A stretch of DNA of 53,281 bases, the filler included, from Streblomastix strix (lineage: Eukaryota), in assembly GCA_008636045.1 (NCBI GenBank). It is 2 parts of 2 records of this genome, joined end to end, with 100 filler letters (N's around TTAATTAATTAA, not from the genome) between each part and the next. Parts side by side here need not be neighbours in the genome. Positions count along the whole stretch, not along the records: positions 1 to 26,600 come from SNRW01000161.1; 1 more part is not named here. The stretch is one strand, 5' to 3'. Shown piece after piece: positions 7,076 through 40,017 of this stretch. The notes beneath the pieces are model-generated. The model saw nothing but the letters and a program-made list of their open reading frames with translations, ran no database searches and had not been told where the DNA came from. Numbering within the stretch: the stretch's first letter is position 1; every line of letters begins with the position of its first letter. Both the position numbers and the translations under genes were made by a program.

Positions 7076-7171
<96 letters not shown>

Positions 7172-10100: not shown

Positions 10101-11922
10101 TCATATTCTAATTATTATTCTAATTATTACTTATGTTCAATTTAGTATCTTCACTATTATTAATATTCATATTCCCAGGAGTATCAACTATCTTAATAAT
10201 AGGAACGCGAGCAGTGCTTATGTAGTTAACAGTCCCAAAATATTTGCCTTAATTTAATTTGTCATTCAATTTCATCAAGAATTTTTTCTGCTCATCTTCT
10301 GGTATTATTGGTGAAGCAGGAAGTGTGAAATGAGGTGAAATGGAAATATCGTTCGAAAGTTGTAGGTAATCAAGTTGATTATTATTATTAATGAATTGAT
10401 TGTTTGTTTGTTTATTTTCATTGATTTTCTTTTTCTTTCTATTATTTTATTTTAATTACTATTTTTAACCATTTTTCTCTTTAATTTTTTCTTTTTAGAT
10501 ATCTTTTAAATCCTATTTTTTGTTTTCATCAATAAAGACATCTGCTATAGTTGGATTTTATAGATGAGATTAAATCTAATTAAAATTTATTTATTTCTAT
10601 TATTATCTAATCTAATTTTATAAATTTTGAAATTTGTTATTATTTTGTGAATTTGACAATTATTAATAAGACTGAGATAGCAAAGCAGGTAAATTGTTTG
10701 CTGAATGCGAATATTAAATGTCAATCTGAGATTATGATTATGAATAAAATGAAGAAGTCAATATTGGTTATGAGAAGTCAAGCATTTTCTATAAACTTGG
10801 TTTAAGTTGAACTCGAAGCAATGAATTTATCTTCTATTATGCTTCATTAGTTTGAATCAAAGTGTTTCCGTTTTGATGAAATGATGTTAACGAATTTTGA
10901 GACGTTTTCAAGTTGTCTTTCTGATTTGGATTTAAAGCATTACTTCTTTCAATTCGTTCATTCCAAGCTAAATTATTTGCTACTTAAACTGTTTGATATT
11001 GTTAACGATGGAATTATTGTTATTTTTCTTCAATTTACAGTGCAATGCTAATGTTGCAATCACATTAACGTTTGAAATTGACATTTCCGCATACTTTACA
11101 CACTGAAATGTTATATTAATCATCTTTTTCTTATTATAATTATTATAATTCCTATTAATCATCTTCATTTAAAGAAACTCTTTACAGCTTAATTTTTAGT
11201 TACCCCTTTTTCTTTTCATTCGCTATTTATCTCCAATTGACTCCAAGAAACTATTTTATTCCCATAATTGTATCCATCTTCTTCTATTTGAGTATTTCTT
11301 TTAACAATGATCTGTTTATCAACAATGATGATGGATATTTACTCAATCTTTCTTTCTCTACACTTAATACTTAATCAAACAAGTCCCCATACCACAGCTA
11401 GAATAAACTCCGGATGATTCGCTAAACACGTAAGATAAATTCACACTATTCTCCTGTTATCACTACAAGATCAACATCGCTTTATGGAAGTGACAGAAAT
11501 GATGAGAAAGATCCATATATAAATAATACTAATCCTTGTTGGTATGGCATATCCGATTGTTGTTCAACATACTCAATACAATTTCGAATACGTTCAACGA
11601 GGATAAATCGAGAAATGCACTCAGATTTGGACAATTGCATAAGTTGAAAATATTTCTACATCTCAGACGAAAGTTGTGCTTCAATAGTTCTTTCAATATT
11701 ATCTTTATCCTATGTTTCTGGCAAAATATTATTGGTATTCATAAGATTCAAAGTTTTAATTTTAGTTTCGTATGCATTTGAAATATCTATATTATCTCTA
11801 TATTCCAAGAATCTATAAAAAAACGATTTATTTGTCAGAAAGAATTTTGAGCGAGGAACTGCAAATGCGAATGGATATTATTCATTGAATTTAAACTGCT
11901 AAAGAATCGGATTATCTATCAT
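1485..11922 (-). CDS. Giant Trf4/PAPD5-like non-canonical poly(A) polymerase / nucleotidyltransferase (~3,420 aa, intron 9896-10058) with long Q/S/N/P-rich low-complexity regions
   Basis: Motifs YGSFSSFLSLPQSDVDLVV (~11470-11520), ISTARVPIIKIVD (~10200), IHVDVGF, RPLILCIKQFLAQNSLNEPYKGGMGGYGL (~9760-9845), YGELLIRFFQLYG and the PAP-associated IEDPLDIGNNVTRS (~8785-8825). The splice junction, IEDP motif, poly-Q tract and TGA at 1485 all share one frame. I did not check every codon of the tail. Confidence 0.8.
7077..7169 (-). repeat. (TAA)31 trinucleotide tract encoding poly-Gln inside the Trf4-like gene
   Basis: Pure TTA repeat on +; in frame with the flanking ...LQLQL-Q31-SSNLSANAN on the - strand. 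Confidence 0.9.
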
Positions 11923-13436
11923 TTACTGAATAGTTAAAAAAAATAATTAAAATTAATAATTTATTGAAGTATAAAACATGTTTTATTTAATATCTGTAAT
12001 AAAATCGATAAAATTAGTATTATTATGCATTTAGCGATGTAGATAATGTACTAAATTATTTGTACAATTAAATCTCTTTGTATAAAACAAATAATTAAAT
12101 CAAAAAGTAAGCTGGACATTTGTAGGTTTGTAAAACAGTTTTTCGGTCTTGTTTTCGTTTATTAAGCAGTTTTTTTGTTGTTTATTATCAGAAAAAGTAG
12201 CTAAAATTTTAGTTGAATATGCATATATATAATAACTAGCAATATGTGTTAAGTAAATTGATAATACAAGTTTAGTGCAATTACACACATAATACCTCAC
12301 CAAAACTGTTAAATTAATTATTTTTCTTAAGGTTATTATGTGATTTTAATAAATAACAATTAGTTTAGCCAATTATATTTAATAATTTTACTGCCACTAT
12401 TTAATCTAATACACTGTTCGAATATTCATGAATTTTATTGATGATTTACGTAATTTTATTGCAAATATCATCATTATATAATCTTATTAAATTGTTGTCT
12501 TATCTTTTTCCACGAGCCTGAAATTAATATATTAACATTTTTCTAATTTTGTACTAAATATTAACAACTAAATTCGCCAATTTATTTGATATATTTTAAA
12601 TAATATAGCTAGGGCGTCAATAGGGTATTTCATTTTTTTCCAGTGTTTTGCACATTTTTTATTGATTTTCTGTATAATTTGCTATAGATTAGATAATTTT
12701 GAGCTTATTAACTTTGAGCAAGTCTGAAATATTTGCCCTTCTGTTTACGAAATCAAATTTTTAGCGTGTAAATTTATTGCAAACGAGTTTTTAGCGTTTC
12801 CCATTTTTGATAGGGTAATTCATAAAAAATTGATGTTTTGATAAGTTTGATGTGATTTTGTTCGTAATTATTGTTGGTGAAGCTCAAAATCTAGCTCTTA
12901 AAGCTGTTTGAAGCCGAAATTTTCGAGTTTTATCTTCGTTTTAGTATTTTCGTGTTTTAGAGCTGTTACGTAAGATAATTTTAATATGATGTATATAAAA
13001 TAAATGAAAATATTATTGTCATTCAGTATTTACACTATCAAATTATAGTAACAAGATCATATTTTGATCCGATTTCTAAGCCAAAACAAAAATAATTTTT
13101 CAAATCCTATAATAATTACTGATCTTGATCTGATCTGATCTTGATCGGATCGTCAACTTCTCCAAATTTATTTATTAAAATTTTTTATCTCTAGAATCCG
13201 ATCTCGATCTGGCGGTTTAAAACTAATTTTAGAAAAATATGTCAATTATCGGTGTCGAACCTAAAACCTTAAAATTTTAATACTGACACATATCCACTAC
13301 TCTACAAGTTCGTGCACTAAAGAGTAAGCTATTAAAGTTAACACAAAAATAATATTTATATATATTAATGATCAAATTTAGCTGAAAATTGATTTATAAT
13401 TTAAAAATTCGGGTCTTCGATTTTTTTTATTTATTA

Positions 13437-13784
13437 TCAATTATCAAATTCTTCCTATATCATATCGTCATCTTTGTCTTTTGATATTAAATAATGAAAT
13501 TCTCTATAATCTTACCAATATTATTAGTATTCAGATCTTTTTTCGTAAAGAACAAGCATTTTAGGTTCTATAAGATCAATATATATGTTATATTATATTG
13601 GTTTTGGAAATTGCTTTGTAAATTATGTTTCTTTTCTCATATTTTAATCTCTTTTCTTCTTAATTTCTTCTAAATCTACTTAAGAATCGTATTTATGATG
13701 GTTTTCAATTTCTACAGCTATGCTAATTTAATTGTTTGTCGACGATGATGATGTTGAGGTCATTTCTTTTTGGTTGTCTTTCAT
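13437..13784 (-). CDS. Small hypothetical protein (115 aa) of the element, divergent from polB
   Basis: ATG 13784 to TGA 13437 is open with TAR=Gln: MKDNQKEMTSTSSSTNNQISIAVEIENHHKYDS...DDDMIQEEFDN. Confidence 0.55.
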
Positions 13785-13998
13785 AAAAAATTTAAATGTT
13801 TAATTAAATAAATAAGTTTAATAAAATTAAAAATAAAAATAATAAAAAATATGTTAAATAATTGAATAAAAAATAAATTAAATAATTTAATAATTAATAG
13901 TTATTTTTTTAAATTATTAAATTATATCTTAGTTAAAAATCTTTTTCTTGATCATTTTAATTTAAATAAAACATACCCAAAATTTTAAAATTGCATCG

Positions 13999-16900
13999 AT
14001 GGCATGTAATTATACTAGATAATAAGTGAATGAAATTGCTGGATTATTTGGGTGTAATTATTCAAGAATTAATTTATAAGCTGGTTAATTCTTAATATAA
14101 GTCTTGTTTTAAGAGTATTGCGTTGAAGAATCATATAATTACTCCCCTTAATTGATTTAGAAAATTATTGATGCAATATAATTAAAGCTTCAATAAGAAT
14201 AATAAAGAAAGTAAAAATTACTTGACGATTTTTATCAATGGGCTAATGAAGTAACTTCATAAGAGATAGAGTAATTCATAAAACCATCAAATGAAAAGGA
14301 AAAGGAAAAAGAAAAGGAAGTTCCAAAATAAATAACTTAGGAAAAAGAAAAAGAGGTTCCTTAGAAAAAAATATAAGAAAAAACTGAAATATAATTAAGA
14401 ATAGAAGAACATAATAGAGAAATTGAGGATTTACCTGCTGAATTTTTTGAAAAATTTACCAAACATGGCATAAGTTAGATGGAAAAAGATTTGCCAAAAG
14501 AATATGATAATCTGTAAGTTGCTGTTAAATAACCAATTGCAAAATAAAAAGTAAAAATAAAATAGTAGCGGTAAAAATAAAATCTAAGATTTGAATTAAA
14601 TATCCAGTTTATAGATCTAGTCTTTCACCATAATTTGTTAAAGAATCATTGAAAAGACTTGGTAAATAATCTGAAGAACTCTCAAATTATGCAGCATTAG
14701 AATTATGGTTGTTATAATTATAAACATTAAATTAATATTATTCTAAACTATCAACTGAAGCTCGAATTATTGGATTTTTAGATTATTCTATTCCGGATTA
14801 ACATTATGAACCAGATCTGAGTTTCTATTAACCATTATCATCAGAAGAAATATCAGATATTCATGATAGAATTGATAATCCACAAAGCAATAGTGAAATT
14901 AAAATATAAAAGGAATAACTTAATGATAAATATAAAAAAATTTACTAAGAATTTAATGATATTCCTGAAGAATAATTACAAACTTTTAAGATGGCTGATA
15001 AAGAAATAATTGCAGAAATATATCATTTTAATGATAAATAACTAAAATAAATAAAAATCGAAAGCTTAATTGACGAATAAGATAAATCACTTTTATTAAC
15101 TGAGCCAGTTAATTTATTGCAATTTTTATAATATTTGAGATCTGCAAGAAGATAACAACAACAGCAATTAAAAGAAATTAAAGGGAAAACTGATTAAGAT
15201 GGAAATGAACCAACACATACATATATAAACAATTAAATAACTTCATTGGAAGATATTCAAAAATTTATTAAAGAAGTTTTTGAAAAAGAAGAAGAAAATC
15301 ATTTTAAAATTGCTGTTGATTTCGACCATATAGAAGAATATTAAGATGTGACTCCTGAATGAGAATAAATATTAGAATATAATTCAAAATTTCCAAGGAA
15401 AAATTTAACTCTGTTGAATATTAAATCGCTTATTACAAGTTAAGAAGATATTGACACTTACGATAAATATATAGGAACAATAATTATCAATAATTAGGAA
15501 CAAACTGAAGAATTTATAAAACATCATTTTATTGCAGTATTCTCAATGATTGTTATAGCATATCGTATTCTATTTGCAGGTAAAGCTATTCCTGAGTTAT
15601 AGAAATTTATTAAACGACGTGAAGTTCATTGTGTTGAATCTCCAAATCCAATTAATTATTTCATTGAAGCATTATCATATTTATCAATGCCTGATTCGGA
15701 AACTAATCGTTACAGATCTTAAAATAGAGTTGCTGAAGGAATTAGATTTATAATTTAACATTACAGTTTATCTGGCAATTCTGCTAAGTGTAGAGATGTT
15801 TAAAATTTTCTTAATGATTTTAAAAGATTTGATTTACCAGCTGATGGTGAGAAAATTGCAAAAAGAATGAATATAAATATCTGTGTCTATGCTTATAAGG
15901 AAGATGAATAATGTAACTCTTTCTACTTAGATCATGTAATAAAAGCATTGAATTATATCTTAGACGAAAATGAAACTCAAGTATAAGAGCAAGATCCATA
16001 AAATTTTAATATACTACTTCTTCAATTTAAAAATCAAGCTCATATATTATTTGTTTCTGATCCAGAAACATTAACAGGTTAAAGATATTGTCCAATATGT
16101 AAGATTCATGGTATTATAATAAAAGATAAAAATTGTCATTCAGCAAGAGATTTTGAAAGGCATGTTGATAAATATAAGTTAAATAATGGCAAGCAAGTTC
16201 TTCTATCATCATCTCAAATACCATTTGCTCCACACATTTTTGGAAATTAAACATATATTCATCTATTAGTTAATGAAATGCTCGATAAATTTAAACCAAC
16301 TTAATATTATATTACGTATGATTTTGAGACTGTTGAGCGAAATATTAATAAATACTTTGGTAAAAATAGAGATGAAAAAGATGAAACTGGTTAAAAATTG
16401 AGTAATTCATTTTAAAATTCCATATTTGAACCATTATCAGTTGCAACTACAATTTAATATAAATCTGGAATTAGAACAATCTATTACGATCTTCATTAAG
16501 GACCAAGTTTCATTGAATAATGGTTAGAAGAAGTATTTAAAGCTGCTGAATAAATTAAGTATGATAATATGTATAATGATGATCCTGAAGTTCCATATGA
16601 AATTCCTGTTCCAGTTATTGGTTTAAATTCTTCTCATTTTGATATGATATTTGTATTACCATATCTTATAAATAAAGATTGGCACATAGTTTAAGGTGGA
16701 TATCTTGGTGATTTCTCTCATATTAAGCGCGTAGAAGTTATGCATAAAATAAGTAATGTTAAGATATAATTCTTAGATATTGGTATGTTCATGACTAAAA
16801 TGTCATTAAAAGAAGTTGCTGAATCATTTGGTGCAGGAAATAAATAAGATTTGAAAGGAATATTTACTTACAATGCATTCAAATACGATAATTATAATGA

Positions 16901-19208
16901 AATATTATCAAAATCTGAACCATTTGCATAAACTGATTTCCTAAACTTACTCAAAGAATAAACCTTATCTGATAAAGAGTACAAAATTTATCTCGATGAC
17001 TGCAAAAAATTTAAAACAAGATAGGAATATCTGTAGTATTAGAATGAATAAGATACAAAAATAATGATAAAACCTATTGATAAACTAATTTAAATGAATT
17101 TCAATAATGGCATTGATATGTTTAACTATGTTTCAGTGGCAAGTTGTGCAAATGCTATCAAATATAAGATTGCTTGTGATGATTTCTATTTAAATGCTCG
17201 TTATGAAAACAAATCAGATATTTTTCTTATTAATTATTAGACATTCAATTTAACTGAATAATACTGGGGAATTAAAGTAAAAAATTATAAAAAATATGAT
17301 ATTAAAGCTGGAAGAGATATCAAAAATAACGTGAATTTATCTGATTATGAGTACTTCAAATAATTACTTGAAAATGGATCTTGTTGGTTCTGTTAAGCAA
17401 GATTTACTAAAACTAATCTTCCAACTCTTGATAAAATTAATAATAAACTTGAACATTCGAAAGATAACGTTAGATTAGCATGCTTATATTGTAATATAGC
17501 TAGAGCTAATAGAGTTGATAAAATATCTCGATTAAAGATATAACTTAAAAGATATTATTTAGCAAAATAATTTCCAATGCCAATTACTAATGAGGAAACA
17601 TATCATGAATTAAGAAATGGAATTAATGGTGGATTCGCTTATGCTTTTCATAGATATAATATTTCAGGAATTACACATATTAATAAACTAAAGCTAGAAG
17701 ACTCAACGTTTGACGACGAAGGTAGGCATGGTAAGGTAATCAGTTATGATTTAGAACATATTATGACTCACATTATAGGATTTGATTTCAATTCTTTTTA
17801 TCCATTTGTCTACAGTGAACATTAACATGAATTAATTAGAAATACAGGTCATTAGATATATACCCCTAGGTATGAATTACTTAGAATTAATTGTGTAACT
17901 GAAAAAAAAGAATTGGGATTAAATATTATAGATAACCAATTAAGATTCTCTTTATAAAAATCTGATATTGATAAAGTAACAATGTTCGTAGCATCTGTTA
18001 AAGGTCATATCAATGAAGAATATCTTAAGGATTTTATTAATTGTCCTCCAATAATTTGGAAGTACAAATATAAATGCTTGGAATTCGTGATTGGTAAACT
18101 GATGTATGAGCATTAATTGAAAAATAATTTTCTAAAAGATAGAAATGAATGCAAATTAACAGTTTTATTATCAAAAATGGGTGAATATATGGATTTTTAT
18201 TCATAATGCTTATGGTTTTTTATTGATGATTGTCATTTCATAATTGATGATATCAAAAATATTAAGACATTCTTAAAACATATAGGATTTGCACCATTTG
18301 TTAAGCATTTCAGTAAATAAAGTCTCTCAGCAAAATTATCAAAAAATGCTGGATTAGATTAATACAGCAAAATAATTATGAATTCATCTTATCGTTCTGA
18401 TGGTATGAATTAAGAATATTTTACGGATGTTAAGATATGTTATAGAGATGATACATTTAGAGTTCATTTATATGACAAATTTAAATTTGATCGTAAGTTA
18501 GGCGATAATAACTATGCTGTAGAATATGAAAAATAGAAATTTTGTTGTAAGACTAGCTTATAAGTTGCATTTGCTGTATTAGATTGTTCCAAATATTGGT
18601 TTATGAGCATTTATAACAATTTCCTTTGCAAATGTATTGATTAATAACGTTTTAATGTTGTTTACTGTGATACTGATTCAATGATGTGTGCTGTTTCAGA
18701 TGATTCGAATTAAGATTATCGATAAGGATTCTCTGCAATAATTATTGATTAAAAATTTTATGATGAAAACTTCTATAAATTTTTTCCAGATCCTAATAAA
18801 GATATCTATAATGAAAAGAAATTACTTGGAGTTGCATATGAACATTGTGGTTCAAGTATGATTGCATTAGCACCAAAGAATTATTGGTTAGATTAGCCGT
18901 TTGATAAGAAAGAACCTGAAGTAATTATATTGAAAGGATTAAATTTAAAACTCAATCCACAAATTAATAAAGAAACATATATATAAAATTTCAAAGAAGG
19001 AACTGTCGTATAAGGTAAAAATAAATCTTTAAGAAAATATATAGAACATACTGATAATAATGAAATACTTAGTTGAATGAGTAGAATTGAAACATTTAAG
19101 AATGGTATTACTGGAACTCATACTAAAATGATATGCTTAGCAAATGGTTGTTGTTGTCCATTTATATAAAATCTTACAGCTGAAAATTATAGTATTGAAA
19201 ATCTATGA
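13999..19208 (+). pseudogene. polB: Protein-primed family B DNA polymerase (Polinton-type) with long N-terminal region, Zn finger and internal HNH; disrupted
   Basis: ExoI YITYDFET (~16310), ExoII GLNSSHFD (~16620), GINGG, motif A GFDFNSFYP (~17780), motif B KIIMNSSYRSDG (~18370), motif C YCDTDS (18663). Frameshift near 14560-14590; in-frame TGA at 14592, 15360 and 19074. Confidence 0.9.
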
Positions 19209-19253
19209 ACTATAGAAATAATCCTTTAATTTTATTTTTGATTTAATTCAAAC

Positions 19254-20672
19254 ATGTTTGACAACTGCGATGATTTTGGTGTTCCACGTAAAGGTGGTTA
19301 TTACTTAAGAAAATCATAAAAAAGAACCGAATAAGAAATTCTATAAGAATTTTTAAGTAGATATTCTGATAATTCTGATGAAAATCGAAGATAAAATGAA
19401 GTTGATAAATTAAAATTTATTGAAGATATGGCAGATCTAATGAACCTAGGAATTAAAGAGATACTTGATAAAAATAAATCATTAAATTTTGAATATTTCT
19501 TAGAAAAATTAAATTTACATGAATAGTATGAAGAATTACCAGTTATGAATAAATTTACAAATTTTATTAAAATTGGAGGTAAATCATTAACTAATTGGTA
19601 TAATGAATATATTGATATATTAGTTGCTAGGGGATAAAGAAGAAAACATATTAGAGAAGATATGAATGAAGGTAGAAGATAATTGAGATAAATTGTGGAA
19701 TTTCAATTCAAATCAAAGCAAAAATTAATTGAAAGAGCAAATCAAATTAAATTGCGACCATAAAATGATATCGATGAAAGAATAAATGTTCCTGATTATC
19801 ATATCAAATAATTACGGAAGAAATTTGGAAGATCTAACTTATCACAATACACTGATTCTTTTGAAATTGATTTAGTATTCTCGATGAATCCACTAATAAA
19901 ACACGTTAGTTAAATTTATTTATTCTGCATTAATATCTATACCAAATATCTTGTTGTATATCCTATTCGTGAAAAAACAGCAGAAGAAATTCACAATGCA
20001 TTAATGATTATAACAATTAATTTCAAAGTAAATTATATCAGAGGTGATGGAGAAAGAGGATTCACAGCAGCTAAGTTAATATAATTTTATAAGAATAATT
20101 AAAATTCTTTAATACACAGTTTCTTCATTGATAATGCAGCTGCTCCATTTACAAATCATAATAGAGTAGTAGATTCAGTGATAAGAACTATAAGAAATGC
20201 ATTCGGATTAAATGAAAGAGCATTTTTAAACAATAATTTAATGCAATTAATGGTTGAAATTTATAATAAAACTCCTCACAGCGTATTTAATAACTACTTT
20301 ACTGCAGATTAAGTGAAATAAAATGAAGATCTTGAAGAAATATTCATCAGAAAACATAATAAATAGTTACATGAATAAAAGAAAGTATAAGTACTTGAAG
20401 GATTACATAACTTTTAGCCTTTAAATATTTTAATGATTTATGTTGATTATTCTCGTACAGAACATTCATTTGCAAAATAAAGAAGAAATTTCAATGAATT
20501 GGCTGAATTTGTTAGTTATGATCATGGAAATGTTTGTTGTAAACCATTAAAGCTAATTAAAAAATTATATAGGATTGAAATTCCAATATATTACTGCAAA
20601 TATGTATGCAAAAATATTGAAGAATTATTTTCATCCAAATTTAAATATTATCGATAAGTATTCTTTATTTGA
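19254..20672 (+). CDS. Retroviral-like (rve / c-integrase) integrase, 472 aa, open frame
   Basis: FEIDLVF...YLFCINIYTKYLVVYPIREKTAEEI...IRGDGERGF...HNRVVDSVIRTIRN...YNKTPHS, the rve core pattern; ATG 19254 to TGA 20670. Confidence 0.85.
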
Positions 20673-20741
20673 TTAATTTTCTATCAATAATTTTTTTATT
20701 TATTTTTAATTTATTAATTTTTATTTATTATCAAATTACGT

Positions 20742-21086
20742 ATGCAAAAAGAAGAAATTTAAGAATTAATTATTTAAACTTTGGATGATTTATAGGCGAT
20801 ATCAATTAAAAAAGATAAAGATAAAGATAATGTCAAAGTTGATTCTCGAGGAAGAAAACATAAATATTAATCTGAAGAAGAAGCAAGAGAAAATCAAAAA
20901 TAATAGAGCAAAATAAGTGCTGCAAAGGCATCATTAAATATAAATATCTTAACATTGGACACAGATAAAGCAAATTTATTGAGAGATTCTTATAAATTAT
21001 GTCTGTAAAAAGTTAGAAAATATCATCAAAACTGGATTTAGGAGAGATTTCATCAAGAATTTTGCGTGCTGTATCATCTGGATTGA
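20742..21086 (+). CDS. Small basic protein (114 aa), possibly DNA-binding
   Basis: Open frame containing DSRGRKHKYQSEEEARENQKQQSK, an RGR motif followed by a charged helix. Confidence 0.55.
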
Positions 21087-21153
21087 TGTCAGTTTTATCT
21101 AAGGTTTGAACTAACAGTAATCAATTTATTTTTATTGAAAACACCGAATTAAA

Positions 21154-22479
21154 ATGTCTGACGGGGACTTACATATGTTAGATGTTGTCTTGAAACATGA
21201 TAAAACATTGTTTGGTTCAAATCGTACAAATACTATTGGAATTGTGGAATAAATCACAAACATCAATAATTAAATCAATAATATATCTTATGGGCCTGCT
21301 GGTGATACTTATTCAAGACCTTAGATTGATGAATTATTTGATGGCGAAGCTGACAAAACTGATCTTGATGAATATTACACTAAATCTGAATTTTATACTA
21401 AGGTTGAAGTCTATAATAATACAAAAGTTGATGAATTTCTTGATGAAAAAGCTAATGTAGGTACTTCATATTCAAAATCAGAAGATGATGCATTATTATT
21501 ATTGAAAGTAGATAAAACTGATTTTGATGAATATTATACAGCTGGATAGGTTGATGAAATGCTTGATGAAAAAGTTGACAAAACGTAATTGATTGATTCA
21601 TATTCAAAATCTGATGATGATGCATTATTATTATTGAAAGCTGACAAAACTGAGTTAATTGATTCATATTCTAAATCAGAGGATGATGCATTATTGTTGT
21701 TGAAGGCTGATAAAACATAATTGATAGATTCTTACTCTAAATCTGAAGATGATGCACTATTATTAGCAAAAGCTGGCAAAAACAGACTTTGAAAACTTTG
21801 TAGATCTGTACACAGCATAAACTATAACAGGATAAAAATAATTTGGAATAATTAGTGTATCTAGCATATCAAAACTTATTAAAAATGATGCATCAATATA
21901 TTACTTGCAAGTGGTGGTGATATATTAGTAATCTCTTTGGTTACATAACAATAATTATAAAAAGTCAGAGATATTGCATCAGAAAGATCAAAAGGTCATG
22001 TATTCGATAAATTATATGATATGAATGATTGGATGGCAGTTCCTGATAATGTTGCAACTTTGGTTATTGGAGATAATTTATATATAATTGATTCATCAGT
22101 TATGGATTATTGGTGGGATGGAACTTAACTTAGAGAATTAGAAACTTAACTTCCAGATTTAACTAATGTTGTCACAACACTTGGTGAAGCTACTGGAAGT
22201 GGAAATGCAATAACTGATCTAAATATAACTGGAAATATATTGACTCCAGCCAAAAATAAAAATTTCGTTGATTTAGAATACAATCAAACAATAAAATGTA
22301 TGTTTCTGCAAGTATGTCAACAATATATGTTAATATTACCATTTCAGTATGAGCTAATAAACTGGAATTAACAATATATGGCTGGAGGATTGCGCCATAA
22401 GGTTGATATCACTGATCCAATGAAAACGATAATTAAATATTATTTTTGTTTGATTCCAAATAATGACAGTATTTATTGA
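21154..22479 (+). pseudogene. Tail-fibre-like structural protein with 22-aa repeats; frameshifts near 21780 and 21900
   Basis: Repeats DSYSKSEDDALLLLKADKTQLI, then FVDLYTAQTITGQKQF, LLASGGD, GDNLYIIDSSVMDYWWDG, GSGNAITDL and FVDLEYNQTI. These motifs recall phage fibre shafts. Confidence 0.6.
21466..21780 (+). repeat. 66-bp coding tandem repeat (3 adjacent copies plus 1 upstream copy)
   Basis: GATTC starts at 21595, 21661 and 21727 (period 66); a related copy starts at 21466. Confidence 0.85.
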
Positions 22480-24093
22480 CGAAAAATTACTTGAAACTGC
22501 TGGATTAACTGATTTTCCAGAGTTATATGCTTATTTTAAAGAACTGGAACCAAAATCAAGTGAAGAATAACCATAATCTGTACCAATAGTTGAATAAACA
22601 TTATAAGATTAAGTTAAATAGAATGCTGCAATAATTAATGATGAAGAAAATGAATTTGTACTTCTACCAATTGAAAATATATAACCAAAAGTTGATTTAT
22701 AAGATGGACTTGAGAAAACAGAAGGTTGTACATGGTTGGTAAATTAATCAATGAAATAATTGAGTGTTTCAAAATAGAAAATTACTTACAATTTCTCAAT
22801 AAAAACAAAAAATATTTTCATAGATACATATTTGAAAATTGGCCTGAATATGCATAACTAAGATTGGAAGATAAGATTATTATAATAGTTGGATCAGATT
22901 CATTATAGGAGAATAATATATTCGGATATATTGATTAAAATGATCTTTATATTTCATTAGATGGAGATGAAGATATATAATCTGATATTACAATTATTTT
23001 ATCAGGTATTTATTATACAAAATATACACCAATTAAACAAGCACCATATGATAGCAGCAATGATAATAAATTGGACATTTAAGATTCATGGAATGAAATT
23101 GCTAAAGGAGGAGAATATAAGACATAAACTTGAGTATATGATACTGTAAAGCGTTAATCAAATATACTTGAATAAATATCATTAGGACCTGAATCTGCAA
23201 AATATAATTGACTAAGTAATTATTTATTAATTGATCCAGTTTCAATATATAGTTTTGATAGAGCAATGTTTTATTTGGTTGATGGACCACAGATAACATT
23301 TAATTTTAAATCTAATGTTAGTGATAATGCATTAAATTACTGTAAAGTTTTTCAAAAGTTCAATACTAGATTGCTGACATAAAAAACTAAATATTTTACT
23401 GCACATCTTTGTTAATAAGAATTTTATGCTCATATGGATGTGAAACCTAACGGATATGCCGATATATTTAATTAAAATAAGATGGAAGTGAAATTTAATG
23501 GATAGCCTGGTAATAGGGATGTAGAATTTGCTGGTACATATATTAATGATACTTATGTAAATCCTGATTCAACAGATTTTGAAGCAGCTAATAAAGCTTC
23601 GTCAAGAATAGATGAAGTGATAGCATAACAAGATAGTAAAGTAAAAATAGCACCATTATTTACTGATTACGCAATAACTGATTTCATAAATTAAGTATAA
23701 TTTGCTGATGATTTTAGAAACGGATAGATTGAAATAATTAATGAGGGTTATGTACCACCAACAATAATTAAAGACTGTACATTGTATCGAGTAAATGATA
23801 GAGTGAACAATTTAATTGTATTCAATTTTTATATTGAATAGTTTAATAATAATAACATAAGTCCAAATTTAATGCTTTATTGGTTACCTGATGAAATTGT
23901 TCCATTAACTAATAAATATTTCCCTTCATCATGCTATATAACTGTTCCAGCTTAATCATATTTTTATAAAAGATCATCAAGTTATGCAATGATAGATTCT
24001 GGTGATAAAGGGCTATATATTCATCTAAGTGATCCAGTATAGGATGTATAACGTGGTAAAGTTTATTATATTAGTGGAAGTTATTACATTTGA
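22463..24093 (+). pseudogene. Beta-rich putative virion / receptor-binding protein; frameshift near 22750-22780 and in-frame TGA near 23130
   Basis: Long TAR=Gln frame with recurring module endings ILSGIYY, FAGTYI and YISGSYYI-stop, suggesting repeated beta-sandwich units. Confidence 0.45.
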
Positions 24094-24174
24094 ACTCATT
24101 TCATTCGCAATCTAAAGAGATAAGTTTATAGTAATTTATTTTTGTTAAACCGAAACAAAAATACAACTAAAAAG

Positions 24175-24498
24175 ATAGCCATCGGAATCTTTCATAAAAT
24201 AAAATAATTAGCATCAAAAGTTGGCAAAGGATTACAATAGGTAAATGATAAAGTTGTTAAACCTGTAGTTCTTCCAGCAATGAAGTAATTTAGTGGTATA
24301 ATTCCTGTTGGAGGATTGATTAGAAAAGGAATAGAAACTGGTTCATCTGCACTTGATGCATTCTATGGATAAGGTTCATAATAAAACTTCAAAAAAAATA
24401 TAATGATTTACTAGAAGATACATACTTAAGAAATTTATCAATTGATTAACTAAGTCGATTAATAAAACTTAGAGGCAATTAATGAAACTTAAAAATGA
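24175..24498 (+). CDS. Small protein with N-terminal cationic amphipathic helix (candidate membrane-penetration protein); ATG absent, ATA at the expected start
   Basis: IAIGIFHKIKQLASKVGKGLQQVNDKVVKPVVLPAMKQFSGIIPVGGLIRKGIETGSSALDAFYG, immediately upstream of the putative MCP. Confidence 0.45.
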
Positions 24499-24556
24499 AT
24501 CTTAAGAATGACTAATGACGAAGTTAAGAGATTATTTTTTTCTTTCACAAATCAAC

Positions 24557-26269
24557 ATGATTCGTTTTCTAGCTAAAGCAATCTAAGTTCAAGGATTAAT
24601 TACAATTGAGTCATATCTTGAATCAAATGCAGTGTCTCCTTTCAAAAATGATGGAGAACATCACTATTCATTTAAGGAAATTAAACCAGAATCATAGATG
24701 TCAGCATTATTTGATAAAGAAATTATAGTAAGTTTATCTGACAGTGATCATGATATTACTCAGATATAGAATTCATTCTTATCAATTGTATTGACTGCAA
24801 ATCAATAGTTCGATAATAAGTTCGAATATTTTTATAATGCATATAAGAATGGAGTAGTTTTATTTGTAAGTTTGAAGTCAGAAAGTAATATAATTCGTGA
24901 ATATACTGTTTATCATCGAGGAAGAACTATTGATGGAAGCTTATTGAATGATGCAACAACTGAATCATTTATTTATAATACTATCAAGCCAAAGTCAGAG
25001 AAAAATAATAGAAAATATATTCATTCATTGTATGAAAATATCCATAAATTCGATACATCAGCATGTAGAATTTAAATAACAATGAGAGAAATTGAAGAAG
25101 CAACTGGAACATAAACAAATATACCATATTTGATGCCAGTTAGATTCAGAATTCCAGTTCTTTTTGATGATATACTTATATTCTCAGCATTTACAGATTA
25201 TCCTAATGGAATGTTTGCAGATCTTAAGATTAAATTCAAAATAAATTCAAATGCATTCGTATTTGCTTAAGTTAATCCAACAAAATCTTTAGTAAAATAT
25301 TATACAATGAATAAAGATGAGCTGTTGAGTTCAGAATAATAAAAATTGATAGATATTGATATCTTCTTCCGTAATTTGAGCTTAGCATTCTAATATACGA
25401 AATAATTTACATAACTTTGATGTACAGCAGATTTAATAACAAGTATCAAACCTGAAGAATTAACTTAAAGTGGCTAGAAAAATTTAATATGCGATATTAA
25501 TCCAGTAATAATTTCAATAAAAAATTACGTAATAACTGAAGTTACAGCAAATATTGCTGGATATAAAGCAAACGATACATGTTTGGCAAGAGTTAGAGAC
25601 TTCTTTACAACTAGAGCATTTGTAGTTCCTGCTTAGAGTGTTGAAATATGGCCATTCCCAACTTCTGCAACACATACAAGAATAAGAACTTCTTAAAATA
25701 TTCCATTATCTCATGTTACAGATATTGTATTATTATTCCCTAAAGATGCAAGATGTACTACATGCTTTGAAAATCTATGTTATTAAAATATGTAGTTGAC
25801 AACTTGTTGAAGAAATTTCCCAGATATACCAATGAATACTACTGATTAATAATTCTTCCATTTATAATAGAATGCTAGTACCTTAGATCAATTATTTGAA
25901 GCGAATGATGAATTTGAAGATGCATTAACTACTCCTAGAAATACTGCAACTAGAAGACCTAATCCTCATATAGATTTAACCTCATTCATGATTTCATTGT
26001 AATGCGAGAGAAATAGTAATGGAACTCTAATTTTAGATGGACTTGATGCAATGAATCAAAAAAGTTCTGTTGAATTAAGAGGTGCACAAATTTATCAAGG
26101 AATTACTGATAGTTATTATAACGTGGATACAAATGGAAAATGACCTCCTCCACCAATTCTATGTACAGTTCCTGATACATTCTGGTTACTTAGTCTTAAT
26201 CAAGGTGGTTCAGCCCATTATGATACAACACATTCATTTGATGAAGTTGTAGAAGAAATTGGAGTGTGA
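24557..26269 (+). pseudogene. Putative double jelly-roll major capsid protein (~570 codons) with three in-frame TGA stops
   Basis: Beta-strand motifs DITQIQNSFLSIVL, IIREYTVYHRGRTI and FRIPVLF...FTDYPNGMFADLKIKFKIN occur in the order expected for a DJR N-terminal roll. Size and position fit. TGA at 25418, 25808 and 26141. Confidence 0.55.
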
Positions 26270-26324
26270 TTATGAAATTAAAAAATAAATGAATTAATTA
26301 ATTATTTTTATTTTTATCTCAAAG

Positions 26325-26600
26325 ATGTAAGTTGCAGAAAATAAAAAGCATTTCATTATATCTGCAGATCTTACATAAAATGAATAGCATTCATTCCAAA
26401 GAAGATTACCTGTAGATTTCGTAAATTCATAGAATGAAAGAAAAATATTGTTTGTTTAATTTACAATTCCATGGAAAGTTAAGAAATGTTTCTATGATTT
26501 GAATTAATAAGAAGATCATGAAACAACTCCTATTTAATATATGAAGATATCATTTCATTCAACATTAGTTTAAGAAGAATAATATAATGAATAATATGTT
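26325..26600 (+). CDS. Putative minor capsid (penton-like) protein, N-terminal part only, cut by the gap
   Basis: MQVAENKKHFIISADLTQNEQHSFQRRLPVDFVNSQNERKILFVQFTIPW resembles the F-x-I-S...F-x3-LP...V-x-F-x-IP start of Polinton/PLV pentons; it follows the putative MCP. Confidence 0.4.
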
Positions 26601-26700
26601 NNNNNNNNNNNNNNNNNNNNNNNNNNNNNNNNNNNNNNNNNNNNTTAATTAATTAANNNNNNNNNNNNNNNNNNNNNNNNNNNNNNNNNNNNNNNNNNNN
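26601..26700. other. Assembly gap / contig spacer: 44 N + TTAATTAATTAA + 44 N
   Basis: Symmetric N runs around a linker that has standard-code stops in all six frames; artificial. Confidence 0.95.
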
Positions 26701-29700
26701 ACAGAAGAAGTGAATCAAGAGAACGATCAAGATCAAGAGTTTTTTCAAGATCTAAAGACTACTAAGATCCGATAGAAACTAGAATGGATGTTGATAGGAA
26801 TTAAAATGGATTTGAAACTAGAAACGAACCAAGAGGCAGAGCACGAGGAGCATATAGATGAAAGGAATATAGTTATTAAGGAAGGGGATAGAACTATTAA
26901 GACAGAGATCAATCGAATTAGGAAAGATATAGAGAAGCATAGAAGTATAACCCATATACAAAATAGATCTTCAGTCAGACTAAGAATCCAATAAACTGAA
27001 ACAGGAAGCACTAATATGATAATAGGAATTGATGAAAAGGCTTGGTCGAAAATCCAAATGACGTGCGGATAAAACGCACACAGGTGCAGAAAGATACACT
27101 TGAACACCATAGTGACAAAGACTCAACCTGGACAGAAGATGTAACCGTTAACACTTGGTAGCAACAGCACAACCCAAATAGCTTGTTCAACAAACACAAC
27201 GAATATAATAGGTACAAGTAATACCAAAATAATAGACCCTAGTTCAAATACCAAGATAAAGAAAGGGAGAAAAGACTAACCACCGAATCAAGATGACATT
27301 GACGAATAAGAAATAAAACAAGAAAGACTAGCTACCTTATAGAGAGAGAAGGAACAATACAATATATCTGATTCGGACAATGAGTTGCAACAAATAATTG
27401 AAGAAATAGATAATAACAATTTAGCACCCAAGTAAGCACAGAAATAATTATAGGAGATGATTTAACAATCAATCTTTAAATAAACAGCATAATTATAAAT
27501 ATATCAATAGATTGCTAATATTTAAGCTTAATAAAAGATAAATTTATCAACATAAAGGATGATTAGCACTAGAATGAACAAAGACAAACCTAGTAGCTAA
27601 ATACAAAGACCTGAAATACCAACTTAGGAAACTATTCATAGAGGAAGAGATAAATAAAGATAATAAAAAATGGAGAGAGAAGTATAAATGATACATGCAA
27701 GTTTACAGCTTTATCAATAATGATACAATACTCTCAACAACAAAAATGTTGATTTATACTGATATACAGGGAACTGTTGGATAGCTAACTGGTTTGTAGC
27801 CGAGTTCTGGTGCCCAGAACCCAGGCTTAAATGCAGGGCTGAAGCCAATTGAAGCGAGGTCAATATCGGCCAGTAATAGTAAAAGAACGGAATCTTAAAT
27901 GAATGAAGGTCATGACGATAATGCTGAAGATAAAGAAGACGAGTAAACCGTTAAAGCAACACTAATCCAAAACAAAGACTGTAGAGTTAATATAATCTCA
28001 TAGCCCCCAGTTTAGGAGAATCTGAGTTTATAATTATAAAATATTCAAGGCTTTAATGCTTTGAGTTAGATAAATAAAGATAATCGAGGCCCTGCACCAG
28101 TTGGAGTACAGGAGAAACCTAAGAAAGGGAAAGGTAGTAAATCAAAAATTTTAACAAAAAGCCTAATTGCCGTTAACGAACCAAGCTAGGGCAGCAATGC
28201 CCAAACTTCAACTTGAATAGCTTCCACAGTTCCAAAACCTAATGTTGCGCCAAAATGAAGTAGGTAAATAGCCGAATAAGTTAAACCCGAGTCAAAAAAT
28301 TCAAACGGTGAGGATAAATGGGAGTAGAGTCCCTTTTCTGACAAGTACACTCCAACCATGGGAGATCAACGTTAAAATCTCCCTATGGAACATAGAAGAC
28401 GAGGGCGCTTGTGAGGACAGCATTTCAGGAGATGGAGGAAAGGATTGGAGAATTGAAATATAAAGAAAAGGAGAATGGAACGGGAGGAAAAATTAAAGGA
28501 TTTTATATGCATGGAAACAGATAGGGAAAGAAGATTTCATAAACTCTGGATTTTTTCTGAGATTTAAAGATTAAACCAGTTAATAGAGATTAAAGGAAAA
28601 AGAAATGATAGTCCCATTTATTGGAACGAAAAAAGAGAAGGAAGCTTTCCAAGATATGTTGAAAGAAGAATTGGAAGAAGGAATAGTAATACCAATTTAA
28701 TAGGATCAAGTGAAATGGTGGAACCATACATTCCTGATAAACAAACTCAATAGGACATGGAGAAAAATTCTGGATGCTAGTAAGTTGAATAAGGAAATAG
28801 AGAATTTACACTTCAAGATGCTTGGACTAGGGGAAGTACAATACTTAGCAAACTAAATGGATTATGTAACATCCATCGACCTCAAATCAGCATTTCACCA
28901 CATCACAATATCTCCATACTCAATACCATACCTAGCATTTAATTTTAATAATAATAATTTCGCTTATAAAGCAGTGCCTTTTGGGACTAAAGACAGTCCA
29001 ATCTTCTTCGCAGAAGCAATAGAATCAATCCTTAGATAAATAAGAATACATTCAGAAATTAAAATTATGAACTACTGCGACGATATACTTCTAATCCATC
29101 AGGATAAACAAATTCTTAAAACACAAACAATAGAAATAATGAAAACACTGGAACAGTTCGGATGGACAATTTCAAAAGATAAATGCGAAATAGATTAGAA
29201 ATTGATAATAGCATTTATGGGATCGATAAAGAACCTGAAGGAAATTAATATATGAATGTCGGAATAAAGAAAGCTGAAAACGATACATGCATTGAAAGAG
29301 TTGTGTAACGCAATATATGTTAATATATACATAAAGATATGAAAACTAGTAGCGCTGATAGGTAAACTGAACTTCCATAGACTCCGGATAAGAGAAGCGT
29401 CTCTATATCTAGGAGAATTGGACAAGGCGAAGACGCAAACGTTAAAGACAAAATCTTAGGACGAAACGATGATAGTGAACAGGGGAATAATCAGAGAATT
29501 GAAATTGTGCATAAAGAGAATAGGGGATAACCAACCAAAGTCAGTGATTAATAAAATATTATCATGTATGATAACAACAGACTCATCACCACAGGGCTGG
29601 GGAGCGACACTGATATACGATAATCAAATAGAATTTATATAACATGACTTCTGGAGCGAAAATGAAGAAGAAATGACAAGTAACGCTAAAAAAATAAAAT

Positions 29701-29955
29701 ATATCTATTACAGGCTACTCCGTTTCGAGCAAGTCATCAAGATGAAGCAAGATCAGGCAATCTTGATACGTTCAGATAATACAACAGCAGTTTACGATAT
29801 TGGGAAATGGAAAGCGAAGGAATCCCTGAGAGGCAGAATAAAGCAAGTATTTTACCTAGTGAAAAGAATTTAACTACAAATTATAACAATCTATATCCCA
29901 GGAATATTGAACTCAACATCGGACTCACTCTCGAGACTGAGCAAATATGGGGGCT
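26701..29955 (+). mobile_element. Degenerate, truncated DIRS-like retrotransposon (gag-like low-complexity region plus RT-RNase H)
   Basis: Purine-rich upstream frames interrupted by TGA, then RT/RNH. No tyrosine recombinase or methyltransferase ORF seen downstream. Confidence 0.75.
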
Positions 29956-30002
29956 ATAATGTCCGCATTGCGATCTTCTTTTAAAATAGATGTAATGATT
30001 GA
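28482..30002 (+). pseudogene. DIRS1-type reverse transcriptase-RNase H
   Basis: GGKIK...WKQIG, WRKILDASKLN, SIDLKSAFHHI, VPFGTKDSPIFF, NYCDDILL, TTDSSPQGWGA, IRSDNTTAV and IPGILNSTSDSLSR. In-frame TGA near 29253 and 29340; the RNH Glu position reads K (SNAKKI). Confidence 0.85.
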
Positions 30003-35700: not shown

Positions 35701-38700
35701 ATTCTTCTGATTCAAACTTAAGCTATATATTGTTCCATTCAATATTCTTTTCTTTTAATGTTGGATTATTATACCACCAAGTGAAAAGTTATTAGAAATC
35801 TTAATTAATTTAAAAGAGAGTTTAATTCAATGTGTTGTATGCAACATTATATACATGTTAATAATTGATATTAATTTAATCCTGCATTAATAATAATAAA
35901 ATAATTAAATAAATATTAAATTTCAATAAAAATATCAATAATATAAAATTAAATTTTTAAATATAATTCCTATATCATACATCATTATCAATGAGCAATA
36001 CATAGAACATATGATAAGTTAATACATCAAGTGCTTGACATATACTCTCGGCTATTTAAATAGCACGAATTCCTCCATGAGTTTAGTTAATTGAATCAGA
36101 GAAGCGATTAATTGTGAATATGTAAGCAAAAATGATTAGTGCCATGAATACGAATAATGATAAGTAGAGCAAAGAAACAATAATTTGCATTGATTTATCT
36201 GTGAGTTGCTTATCATCAATTGTACTTACATTCATTGTACTTTTTGGATCTCTATTAGAAGCATCCTTATATTACTGAAGGTATTGTTCAACCATTCCTC
36301 CATTCCCTTTAAACTTCTTTCTCACTAATGATGCCAGGAAATCATTTTATAACGTTTTTTATTCGTCCTGATTTCTGTAACTCTCTTAATTTCTTGGCGA
36401 TTGATCTTTTTGTTTGTCAAATGTTAGTTTATTACGTCGTATTCGCTCAGACAGTGCTAACACCTGCTCTTCAATGCGATCAGCCTCAGAAAACAGACAT
36501 TCAGATGCTTATGTATCATTGTATAGGTCTTTCACAAGCACAGATACGTGTCTCAGTATTGATGGGTTGTTTGGATGGTCATCAAGGAGCTTGAAATATG
36601 CTTCCAATGCTTTTAGGGTTTTGTCTGCTGCTCGCTCGAAATTGAACATTATTCGATCGACATCTACATTTCTTCTCATGATTAGTTGGACTGTCTGGAG
36701 TAAGTAAGCTTTTGCCAGTTCATAATTGGTTTATCCAAATTGCAGTCTTACTTGCATTGAATGTGCACTTTTGTGTTGAAATTAATATTTAATATAAATA
36801 TTATAATTAAAAAAAAATAATAATTAAAAAATAATTTAACTCTATTCAATTCAATTTTAGTAATAAAATTATTATATTTTCATACTTTTCAACTTATGAC
36901 GAAATACTTAATGCACCAAAACCAACTTTGACTTGGTTTTATTAATTCATATCTTCCTCCTCAATGTCCTTAAATACAATAAATAAATTATTAATATATA
37001 ATATAATATTTTAAATTAATAAAGAAAATAAAATAAAATTCATTCAATAATAACATCAATTCATATTTAATTACACACCCTCATCATTCTGAATATTATC
37101 CATCTGTTCGTCCATCCAGGAAACATCTGAGTCGCCCTTCGGAGCAAACTGATCACTTTATCTCGACTAGGTTTGAACTTCTGCATAAAAAGAGCTGCAG
37201 TTACATTCATTTCAGCTGAATATTCAAATTCGTTATCTTTCAGTGCTTTCAGCAAGACAGCTAAAGTGAAAGATCTAATCCTTGCATTCACTGATATCTC
37301 TTCCAACTGCATGTACCGCATCCCCTTTTCAAGCTCAGAAGGTGTTTTGAAGTCTTTAAACACTGAATGAACAACAGATGGTGTTGCAAGAAGAGGTGAA
37401 AGTGACCATTAAATGTTTGGATGCGAAATTCGGACAACACCAGATGGAAGGCGGTTATATAAAACTGGTTGGCTTTCTTTAATTGCAGAATTTCTGGGTG
37501 TTGAATTTTTAGACTGATTTCTTGGAGTTGATACTTTTGATTGAATTTTTGGTTGATTCACTTTTGGCTTTATTCCATTGGTAATGTTTTGTTTTTATTA
37601 TTCAATGGTTAATTAATTTTCTTTTTATTTAGGTTGAGATTAGCCTGATTTAGAAATTAAAGCTTAATTAGAATCAGATTTTACTATTATTTATTATTTA
37701 GGTTAAGATTATAATGTTGGAGATAATAATCTTTATTTGGATATTGATTTAACTATTACTTATTAATTAGGTTGAGATTATATTATTGGAGATAATAATC
37801 CTTATTTGGATATTGATTTAACTATTATTTATTAATTGGGCTAAGATTATATTGTTTGTGATAATAATCCTTATTTGGATATTGATTTAACTATAACTTA
37901 TTATTTAGGTTGAGATTATATTATTGGAGATAATAATCCTTATTTGGATATTGATTTAACTATTACTTATTAATTGGGCTAAGATTATATTGTTTGTGAT
38001 AATAATCCTTATTTGGATATTGATTTAACTATAACTTATTATTTAGGTTCAGATTATAATATTGGAGATAATAATCCTTATTTGGATATTGATTTAACTA
38101 TTACTTATTAATTAGGTTGAGATTATGATATTGGAGATAATAATCCTTATTTAGAAGTTGATCTTACTATTACTTATTAATTAGGCTAAGGTTATAATGT
38201 TGGAGATAATAATGCTTTTTTTGAAACTGATTTAACAATTCTTATTGGTTGTTGCTTTGGTTGAATTGCAACAGATTTGACTTTCTCAACATTTGAAGGT
38301 TATTTAATTAAAATTATATTCTGTAATTTGTTTTGTTTCAATGAATTGGGATTAAAACCATCATCAATTGTATTGTTAAATGATTTTAATGCAGGTGGCT
38401 CAATTGAATAAATTATTGATTAATTAATTTATTTCTTTATTAATAGGGCTCCAACAATAAATGGTCTTAATTTCACTATATTACAATTTCTTTCTTCTAT
38501 TAATGTTTTCTTTCGTAATTATTAATATGTTTTATATCTTTCAAGTTTATTAGGAGATTCCTGAATTAAAAATTAATTGATGTTTGAATTGATTGATTTT
38601 GCATTATTGTTTGATTATTAATAATCTTTTGTTTCAGATTCATTATTTGTTTAATTGATTTGATTTTTTGCATTTAAATTAATTTAAGGTTTCTATTAAT

Positions 38701-40017
38701 CAATCTTGCTAAGTCTGCATTATTAATGGTATATCACAGGATTAATATAGTTCATATTAATGCAATCATCTTCTTCTTTTGTTACATTATACCATTCATA
38801 TACTGGTTTAATTATCCATCTTTTTATAGCTGATTTCTTCGCTAGAATAAAACCAATCCATCCAAAAAGTATAACGAATCCAAACATTGATAAATATAAG
38901 ATCATATTAGCTCCAATAACCTATAGCCAACCAACTAATTTAATTCCCTTTTCTATGTTCAGATGTCCTAAATATGCCAATTTATTTAAACCTGATAGGC
39001 AGATTGATGTTATACCACCTGAAGATGCAATGAGTAATAATTCACTATGAACTTAGTTACCAAAAGTCATAATGTAAGGTTGATCCAATATTACATATAT
39101 ACCAAGACCAATGAATACAATAATCTGAATAATAGATGATGCAATTGGTGAGATCTCAACAATGAATGTTTATAAAACAACAGTCATTCCAGTGATTAGG
39201 AAACAAAATGATGAGAATATTCCTTTTCTTTAATCATTAACTTAAGGTTTCTCCAGATCTGTGTGGAATATGAAGAATGTGAATAGGCTTCCATAAATAA
39301 GGAGAATTATGATGAATATTAATCCAATAATAGTATAGATAATGCTGCTTGGTTTATAGTTGCAATGACTCAAATTCAGCGATGGATTTAAATCATCTTT
39401 ATTTTTACTTAATAAGCAAAGTATTGGTTTGGCCAATATTGAAAGCATTGGTGTTGATATTGCGTGTATCACAATTATGCAGAGAAGTTTAACTATACTC
39501 TGAAGTTCATCTGGAATCTTGGTCTCTTTGATAAATAGCAAGAATGCAGAAAAATGATGAGCAATTGTTAGTACTATAAGAGATGTAACAATTGCGTAAA
39601 TAACGATGAATGAAATATGTGATTGAAGATAGAATGATGGATCGAAGTAAAGTCTATATGAGATAAATAAGATCAATATTTTAATAATAAATAAATTAAT
39701 ATGGAAAATTAATGAATATTTCAAACCCAATAACTTTCAGAACGTAATTAAATCCAGTAAAACTAACATCTGATCGTTTGAGAGGAAGAAAATACCACTA
39801 GAACGTCTAAAGGATTAAAATACTGATATTGATTATATTTGAAAGTGAGCTACAATGCTAAGATGCACAAAAATAAGAAAAAAAAAGTGAAATAATAAGA
39901 AAAACAGTGAAATAATATTTCTTACCATCTTAATCGCATAGAAGAAGGAGAATAATCTGGTTAATAATAAAATAATGCAAAAATAAAACGAATGGATGTC
40001 TTTGGCATACTTTTCAT
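32753..40017 (-). CDS. Large multi-transmembrane protein (TmcB/TmcC-like architecture) with C-terminal hemerythrin domain; several introns; start may lie further upstream
   Basis: N-terminal TM bundle (~38800-39800), TPR-like block (RRATQMFPGWTNRWIIFRMMR; LLDDHPNNPSILRH), further TM hairpins (~36100, 35400, 34400, 33750). C-terminus has hemerythrin motifs IDEAH, HFADEE, HKIDH and HYIKYD; TGA at 32753. Confidence 0.7.
37670..38240 (-). repeat. 69-bp (23-aa) coding tandem repeat, ~8 copies
   Basis: GATAATAAT recurs at 37722, 37791, 37860, 37929, 37998, 38067, 38136 and 38205. The unit encodes about QPNQQVIVKSISKQGLLSPIIQS. Confidence 0.9.

Follow-up and report, generated by a model that had tools for sequence, protein, structure and literature searches.

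The closest described relatives of the locus analyzed here are the major capsid proteins (MCPs) of Maverick-Polinton elements in Streblomastix strix, which were placed by Bellas et al. (2023, PNAS, PMC10120064) in a "Metamonada group" seeded by a newly found T. vaginalis Maverick-Polinton MCP. According to that paper and its supplement, the S. strix elements are written in the code of their host, in which TAA and TAG stand for Gln, and 820 S. strix MCP matches falling into one cluster are reported from the 152-Mb assembly (Table S4). For one of these proteins, KAA6394011.1 (EZS28_010462), Table S3 gives a Foldseek match to 3j26_A at E 2.6e-12 across residues 28-557; in Table S5, a T. vaginalis contig matches an S. 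strix MCP with 32.1% identity (527 residues, E 9.8e-71); and the text treats Pfam DUF4106 as the MCP of T. vaginalis. Two S. strix gene models considered below, EZS28_001536 and EZS28_007111, were not found in the available part of the supplementary tables, and in the text and supplementary tables, to the extent available, the fibre-like, 543-aa, and small-ORF genes that accompany the MCP are not characterised.

Here, one window of DNA from the termite-gut protist S. strix was analyzed, that is, the whole stretch of 53,281 nucleotides (filler included) taken from assembly GCA_008636045.1, in which two contigs are joined by a linker (Table 1). The best explanation of the frame at 24557-26269, to which we assign a probability of about 93%, is an inactivated MCP gene of an endogenous Maverick/Polinton-type DNA virus of S. 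strix, with a predicted double jelly-roll (DJR) fold. Such a gene would use the host code, with TAA and TAG read as Gln and TGA as stop, and would have been interrupted by three point substitutions that turned two Gly codons and one Arg codon into TGA. Judging from the fold family, the protein of an intact element would form pseudo-hexameric trimers that tile an icosahedral capsid.

Table 1. Coordinates of features in the window, counted along the whole stretch
Feature	Position	Strand	Details
Predicted double jelly-roll major capsid protein pseudogene	24557..26269	+	570 codons (TAA/TAG = Q), terminal TGA 26267
In-frame TGA, codon 288	25418..25420	+	Gly in 19/19 aligned relatives; related DNA copies GGA
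In-frame TGA, codon 418	25808..25810	+	Gly 13/19, Asn 6/19 (one subgroup); related DNA copies GGA
In-frame TGA, codon 529	26141..26143	+	Arg 11/19, His 7/19, rest Ile/Lys; related DNA copies AGA
Family B DNA polymerase frame with endonuclease VII/HNH-like insert	14991..19076	+	phrog_1907, phrog_1035
472-codon open frame, integrase candidate	19254..20672	+	D..D..(E/D)-like pattern by eye and position
Fibre-like repeat protein region	21154..22479	+	ORFs 21154-21792 and 22021-22479
Decayed gene homologous to P0285, an intact S. strix protein of 543 aa	22463..24093	+	One frameshift, two TGA
Small open frame (the "amphipathic ORF" of the initial annotation)	24094..24498	+	First ATG 24280
Linker at the end of the 26,600-base contig with the element	26601..26700	.	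N44-TTAATTAATTAA-N44; two contigs joined, linkage across the linker not implied

The frame of ~570 codons proposed in the initial annotation was borne out when TAA and TAG are read as Gln: it has 570 codons and, translated with X at the three internal TGA codons (P0001, the query used for relatives), matches 166 database proteins at E <= 0.001. On the plus strand it contains 23 TAA/TAG codons and three internal TGA codons (NCBI table 6), and under table 11 or the standard code it is interrupted by 27 stop codons. Frames of at least 150 codons number 112 in the whole window with TGA as the sole stop, versus a single one with the standard stops; the G+C content of the DNA is ~25%. Within the capsid frame, Gln would be encoded 23 times by TAA or TAG versus 8 times by CAA or CAG, and two nearly invariant Gln columns among 58 relatives (20-86% identity), Q286 and Q360, are occupied by TAA and TAG in this copy. 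These conserved columns, together with the codon usage, indicate that the reassignment of TAA and TAG to Gln is valid for the viral gene as it is for the host.

At the level of sequence comparison, the similarity of the capsid frame to other proteins is far above chance: besides the 166 database proteins, a profile run against 1.84 billion cluster representatives recovered 544 relatives at E <= 0.001 (180 of them at E <= 1e-30), many being full-length proteins of 540-620 aa encoded on metagenome contigs. The best 120 of the 166 proteins, with E values reaching 0, are all named "hypothetical protein EZS28_..." and come from Streblomastix strix. The nearest is P0002 (EZS28_007111), an intact protein of 570 aa with 85.6% identity over 570 residues. 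In a comparison by eye, the published KAA6394011.1 (PMC10120064, Table S3) groups in alignment A1 with P0005, P0007, and P0008, a subgroup that shares 69-70% identity with the capsid copy. A ciliate Tlr element, suggested by the genetic code, was rejected because all named matches (the best 120 of 166) are from S. strix.

Between ~13.7 kb and the contig end at position 26,600, all likely genes lie on the plus strand. The polymerase was recognized by a match to phrog_1907 ("DNA polymerase", E 1.9e-10) at residues 799-1224 of the frame 15363-19076, with an insert at residues ~546-728 that matches phrog_1035 (E 1.1e-8) and phrog_1271 (E 0.0012); no Pfam match was obtained at E <= 0.01. This is a family B polymerase, presumably of the protein-primed subtype. 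Its main frame has 1237 codons and is preceded by an N-terminal piece of 123 codons in the same frame, from which an in-frame TGA at 15360-15362 divides it. The 472-codon frame that follows produced no match to Pfam (E <= 0.1) or to PDB sequences (E <= 1) and is possibly an integrase of the retroviral (rve) type, given its position and the motif read by eye. The fibre-like region is homologous to the N-terminal part of a protein model from a sister element (P0286) and contains a tandem repeat at 21465-21781 (plus strand; 66 nt, 4.8 copies) that encodes 22-aa units of the type "DKT.LIDSYSKSEDDALLLLKA". In the homologue of the 543-aa protein, the frameshift lies near 22792-22819 and the two TGA codons, at 23131 and 23209, occupy positions where P0285 has Trp. 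The small open frame could encode a minor capsid or membrane protein.

The capsid frame had originally been placed between an amphipathic ORF and a penton-like ORF, an arrangement that does not hold, as both lie upstream of it (24094-24498 and 22463-24093, respectively). Downstream of the capsid gene are ~330 AT-rich bases without a convincing frame, and then the contig ends. The gene order is alike in the sister element as represented by P0286 (fibre-like gene, 543-aa gene, small ORF, MCP), and on three contigs that carry homologues of both the MCP and the 543-aa protein, the locus tags of the two differ by 1-2. Pfam searches of the frames in 13720-26600 detected neither a packaging ATPase of the FtsK type nor a protease of the adenoviral type; because the contig stops ~330 bases after the MCP, both may lie past its end. 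A scan of 12000-33000 for inverted repeats yielded just short AT-rich pairs with 70-92% complementarity and no convincing terminal repeats, the right end of the element being off the contig. The neighbouring virus genes are broken as well, which makes it most likely that the insertion as a whole is a fossil in decay; the S. strix genome has hundreds of copies, of which this is one.

Several other features were observed in the window. Beside the element, at 1485-12099 on the minus strand, are host genes with very Gln-rich frames (166-192 TAA/TAG codons each and a long poly-Gln run) that contain Cid1-type poly(A) polymerase domains (PF22600, E 1.4e-10; PF03828, E 2.9e-5). The second contig begins with a retroelement remnant (26701-30002, plus strand; G+C 0.30-0.35) in which 28065-29255 matches a reverse transcriptase (RVT_1, E 1.9e-20) and 29469-29999 weakly resembles RNase H; it is probably frameshifted, as the matches are spread over overlapping frames. 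Further along, at 37061-39736 on the minus strand, a frame of 891 codons without a family match has hydrophobic segments at its N-terminus and about ten near-identical repeats of ~20 residues ("QPNQQVIVKSISKQGLLSP..."). The primase/polymerase gene of Yaravirus has been reported to cluster with Streblomastix and Phytophthora sequences (bioRxiv 10.1101/2020.01.28.923185), which would suggest that the S. strix assembly contains further genes of viral derivation.

The interruption of the capsid frame by three TGA codons with no frameshift was confirmed: the stops are located at 25418, 25808, and 26141, and the ungapped alignment with the intact P0002 over 570 residues shows the frame to be free of shifts. 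A reading of TGA as a sense codon was rejected, given that relatives carry Gly, Gly, and Arg or His at the three sites (GGA, GGA, and AGA) and that the terminal TGA position is shared by the intact copies. The 24557-26269 segment was compared with contigs from three termite-gut metagenome runs (X1-X3) at a likeness of at least 85%. The aligned contigs are short (~120-360 bases) and 85-99% alike, most being sister copies at 85-95%, and speak to individual sites rather than to the locus as a whole. These sister copies have G at both 25418 and 25808 and A at 26141. The presence of many sister copies in three separate metagenome studies indicates that the capsid family is widespread in termite-gut samples. 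In run X1, a minority of the depth carries the T of the window at 25418, the other base being found in 427.6 of 444.7 reads; at 25808, the other base accounts for 5356.2 of 6749.1 reads and the remainder has the window's T. The T at 26141 was absent from every aligned contig of the three runs, so that this stop is vouched for by the assembly and is possibly erroneous.

A tree was built from 54 family members, namely those of 500-640 aa among P0001-P0121, with P0062 excluded. In this tree, the capsid copy pairs with P0002 as its sister, but 0.172 substitutions per site fall on its private branch and 0.0018 on that of P0002; terminal branches have a median of 0.079, and by this measure the capsid copy ranks 44th of 54. 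At columns with at least 90% conservation, the capsid copy departs from the consensus at 21 of 227 and P0002 at 0 of 219. Of the "recent decay" that had been suggested for this gene, the decay stands, with TGA where relatives have Gly, Gly, and Arg or His, but its recency is doubtful in view of the long private branch and the departures at conserved columns. We thus regard the frame, from sequence comparison, as an apparently inactivated capsid gene copy whose decay is probably not very recent. As such, it would be a clean example of how an insertion decays, combining nonsense codons and a long private branch with zero indels.

The alternative that survives best, although we consider it very improbable, is that the capsid gene is intact and that the three TGA codons are errors of an amplified single-cell or metagenome assembly, or chimeras of collapsed repeats. 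Hundreds of near-identical family copies do invite mis-assembly, and both the lack of indels relative to P0002 and the failure of the T at 26141 to appear in any aligned metagenome contig are compatible with such errors. However, part of the depth in run X1 retains the window's T at 25418 and 25808, the private excess of amino acid changes (the 0.172 branch and the 21 departures in 227 columns) goes beyond three isolated errors, and the neighbouring genes are broken too.

The deposited annotation of the locus bears on a second alternative. The model EZS28_001536 (P0062, 704 aa; window 22021-26140) is identical to the capsid locus in all aligned blocks, skips the stop-bearing segments, and continues into the upstream genes, taking in part of the small ORF at 24094-24498; its source contig is given as 26,600 bases long, the length of the first contig of the window. 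It is the deposited model of this locus, a chimera created through invented introns. The model of the sister element, EZS28_000180 (P0286, 1636 aa), is likewise chimeric, and both models splice together the fibre-like gene, the 543-aa gene, the small ORF, and the MCP while skipping stops and frameshifts. If these models were taken at face value, the locus would be a spliced host gene, a domesticated fusion of viral parts in which introns remove the stops, exactly as publicly annotated. We judge this even less probable than assembly error, given that the gaps in the model delete parts of the capsid core that are conserved in 19 relatives (for example, residues 258-291 and 391-439) and that the model fuses four genes which stand alone intact elsewhere (P0002, 570 aa; P0285, 543 aa). 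The public annotation of this locus, and likewise that of the sister element, therefore joins several viral pseudogenes.

The assignment of the pseudogene product as a capsid protein relies on its predicted structure and on the published family, because the capsid frame had zero matches in Pfam and PHROGs and a profile search with 58 sequences found no match to the capsid family among PDB sequences. Pfam DUF4106 was matched by none of the 58 family members (alignment A2) at E <= 0.1. The description of the protein as highly divergent accordingly applies with respect to Pfam and PDB sequences and does not extend to the literature, where this family has been published as a DJR MCP (PMC10120064). 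An AlphaFold2 model built from the 58-sequence alignment has a mean pLDDT of 87.7 and a pTM of 0.89, with residues 1-16 alone under 50, and is predicted to comprise two eight-stranded jelly rolls, one after the other, in a single chain. The three segments that had been likened to conserved DJR strands, NSFLSIVL, IIREYTVYHRGRTI, and YPNGMFADLKIKFKIN, were located at residues 72-79, 112-125, and 215-230 and overlap the model strands E74-85, E113-120, and E223-229, respectively.

Compared against the PDB with Foldseek, the model gave 175 matches at E <= 0.001, the first being the Sputnik MCP (3j26_A, E 2.1e-13), accompanied among the top matches by the MCPs of SGIV (Singapore grouper iridovirus), PBCV-1, faustovirus, EhV-201, and mavirus, with E values spanning 2e-13 to 1e-10. 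Against BFVD, the matches were to capsid proteins of adintoviruses, NCLDV, and virophages (E 3e-15 to 1e-12), and further to those of ascovirus, ASFV, and adomavirus. In VIA-align, the highest score belongs to PBCV-1 (8h2i_bC, Z 19.3, 341 residues aligned, rmsd 4.1 A), followed by SGIV iridovirus (Z 18.7), Vp54 (5tiq_B, Z 18.6, with model residues 14-559 aligned onto the whole chain, 17-437), faustovirus (Z 18.2), ASFV p72 (Z 17.3), mavirus (15.7), vaccinia D13 (15.5), Sputnik (15.2), adenovirus hexon (13.2), and PRD1 P3 (11.1). All 50 of the 50 matches listed are DJR capsid proteins or of the D13 type (Z 19.3-11.1), and residues ~14-560 of the model match DJR major capsid proteins alone, among the matches listed. 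The initial call of a DJR MCP fold is thus upheld by a model of pLDDT 87.7 that matches the DJR capsid proteins of PBCV-1, virophages, adenovirus, and NCLDV; a confident structure other than two jelly rolls had been named as the outcome that would speak against the call, and AlphaFold2 with Foldseek and VIA-align gave a DJR instead. The least probable alternative, that of a DJR protein with a role outside the shell, such as a scaffold like poxvirus D13 (D13 chains, Z 14.3-15.5), is extremely improbable, given that true capsid proteins score higher (Z 15.7-19.3), that virophage and adintovirus capsid proteins top the Foldseek lists, and that the element, a small Maverick-type insertion with a polymerase, is unlike a poxvirus genome.

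The genes upstream of the MCP are less explored. The model of the intact 543-aa protein P0285 is of moderate quality (pLDDT 63.4, with 205 residues under 50), and its Foldseek comparison with the PDB yielded no match at E <= 0.001 and no penton match, producing local matches only, over ~116-121 residues, to receptor-binding heads of lactococcal phages. The VIA-wide comparison with 48,161 chains returned none at Z >= 8 and four at Z >= 5, the best of which, at a weak Z of 5.9, were a phage tail needle and a Listeria-phage receptor-binding protein; residues ~101-543 also aligned at Z 5.6 to single-chain C1q/adiponectin head trimers. Leads from the ESM Atlas, all under the 0.9 threshold, were phage fibre or tail proteins. 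The model contains three putative beta-sandwich domains (~76-190, ~267-360, and ~404-543) with weak similarity also to reovirus sigma1 and adenovirus fibre knobs (Z <= 5.9). Going by this model, the product of 22463-24093 could be a vertex, attachment, or receptor-binding protein rather than a penton.

Upstream of the MCP there would thus be a fibre-like protein of 22-residue repeats and a 543-aa protein with heads resembling either C1q/TNF or the receptor-binding heads of phages, weak evidence that hints at a fibre-and-head attachment apparatus. A speculative reading, which we hold to be rather unlikely, is that the Maverick-type viruses of S. strix have an adenovirus-like attachment apparatus in place of a plain penton and were active very recently or still are; the latter part would follow from copies close to a "master" sequence, such as P0002 with its terminal branch of 0.002.

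Set against the published family, to the extent that the paper and its tables are available, the capsid copy is an ordinary member, with nothing new in fold, copy number, or code; because the capsid family, its fold, the 820 copies, and the host code were already published in 2023, the locus adds little to the biology. It does show that a reading of bare sequence can recognise a capsid gene in a non-standard code. With the published S. strix MCPs, the capsid copy shares the organism, the TAA/TAG = Q code, the protein family, and the match to Sputnik 3j26_A (E 2.6e-12 there versus 2.1e-13 here), and it differs from them by its three nonsense codons.

T. vaginalis uses the standard genetic code. 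The model for its MCP, DUF4106, differs from the S. strix family in that 0 of 58 members match it at E <= 0.1, whereas in PMC10120064 the T. vaginalis Maverick-Polinton MCP belongs to the same MCP network group as the S. strix MCPs. The virophage MCPs of Sputnik (3j26_A) and mavirus (6g45/6g44) are double jelly rolls of similar size (Foldseek E 2.1e-13 and 5.1e-11, respectively, with TM 0.45-0.51; Z 15.2 and 15.7, with 402-413 residues aligned), but their sequence identity is 7-11% with no match at the sequence level, and the S. strix elements further differ in encoding a family B polymerase and in being present as many integrated copies. The MCPs of NCLDV (PBCV-1 Vp54, SGIV, faustovirus, and ASFV p72) score highest in structure (Z 17.3-19.3), aligning across both jelly rolls over 341-385 residues at 5-9% identity; these proteins belong to giant-virus genomes, whereas the S. 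strix elements are integrating elements of 15-20 kb.
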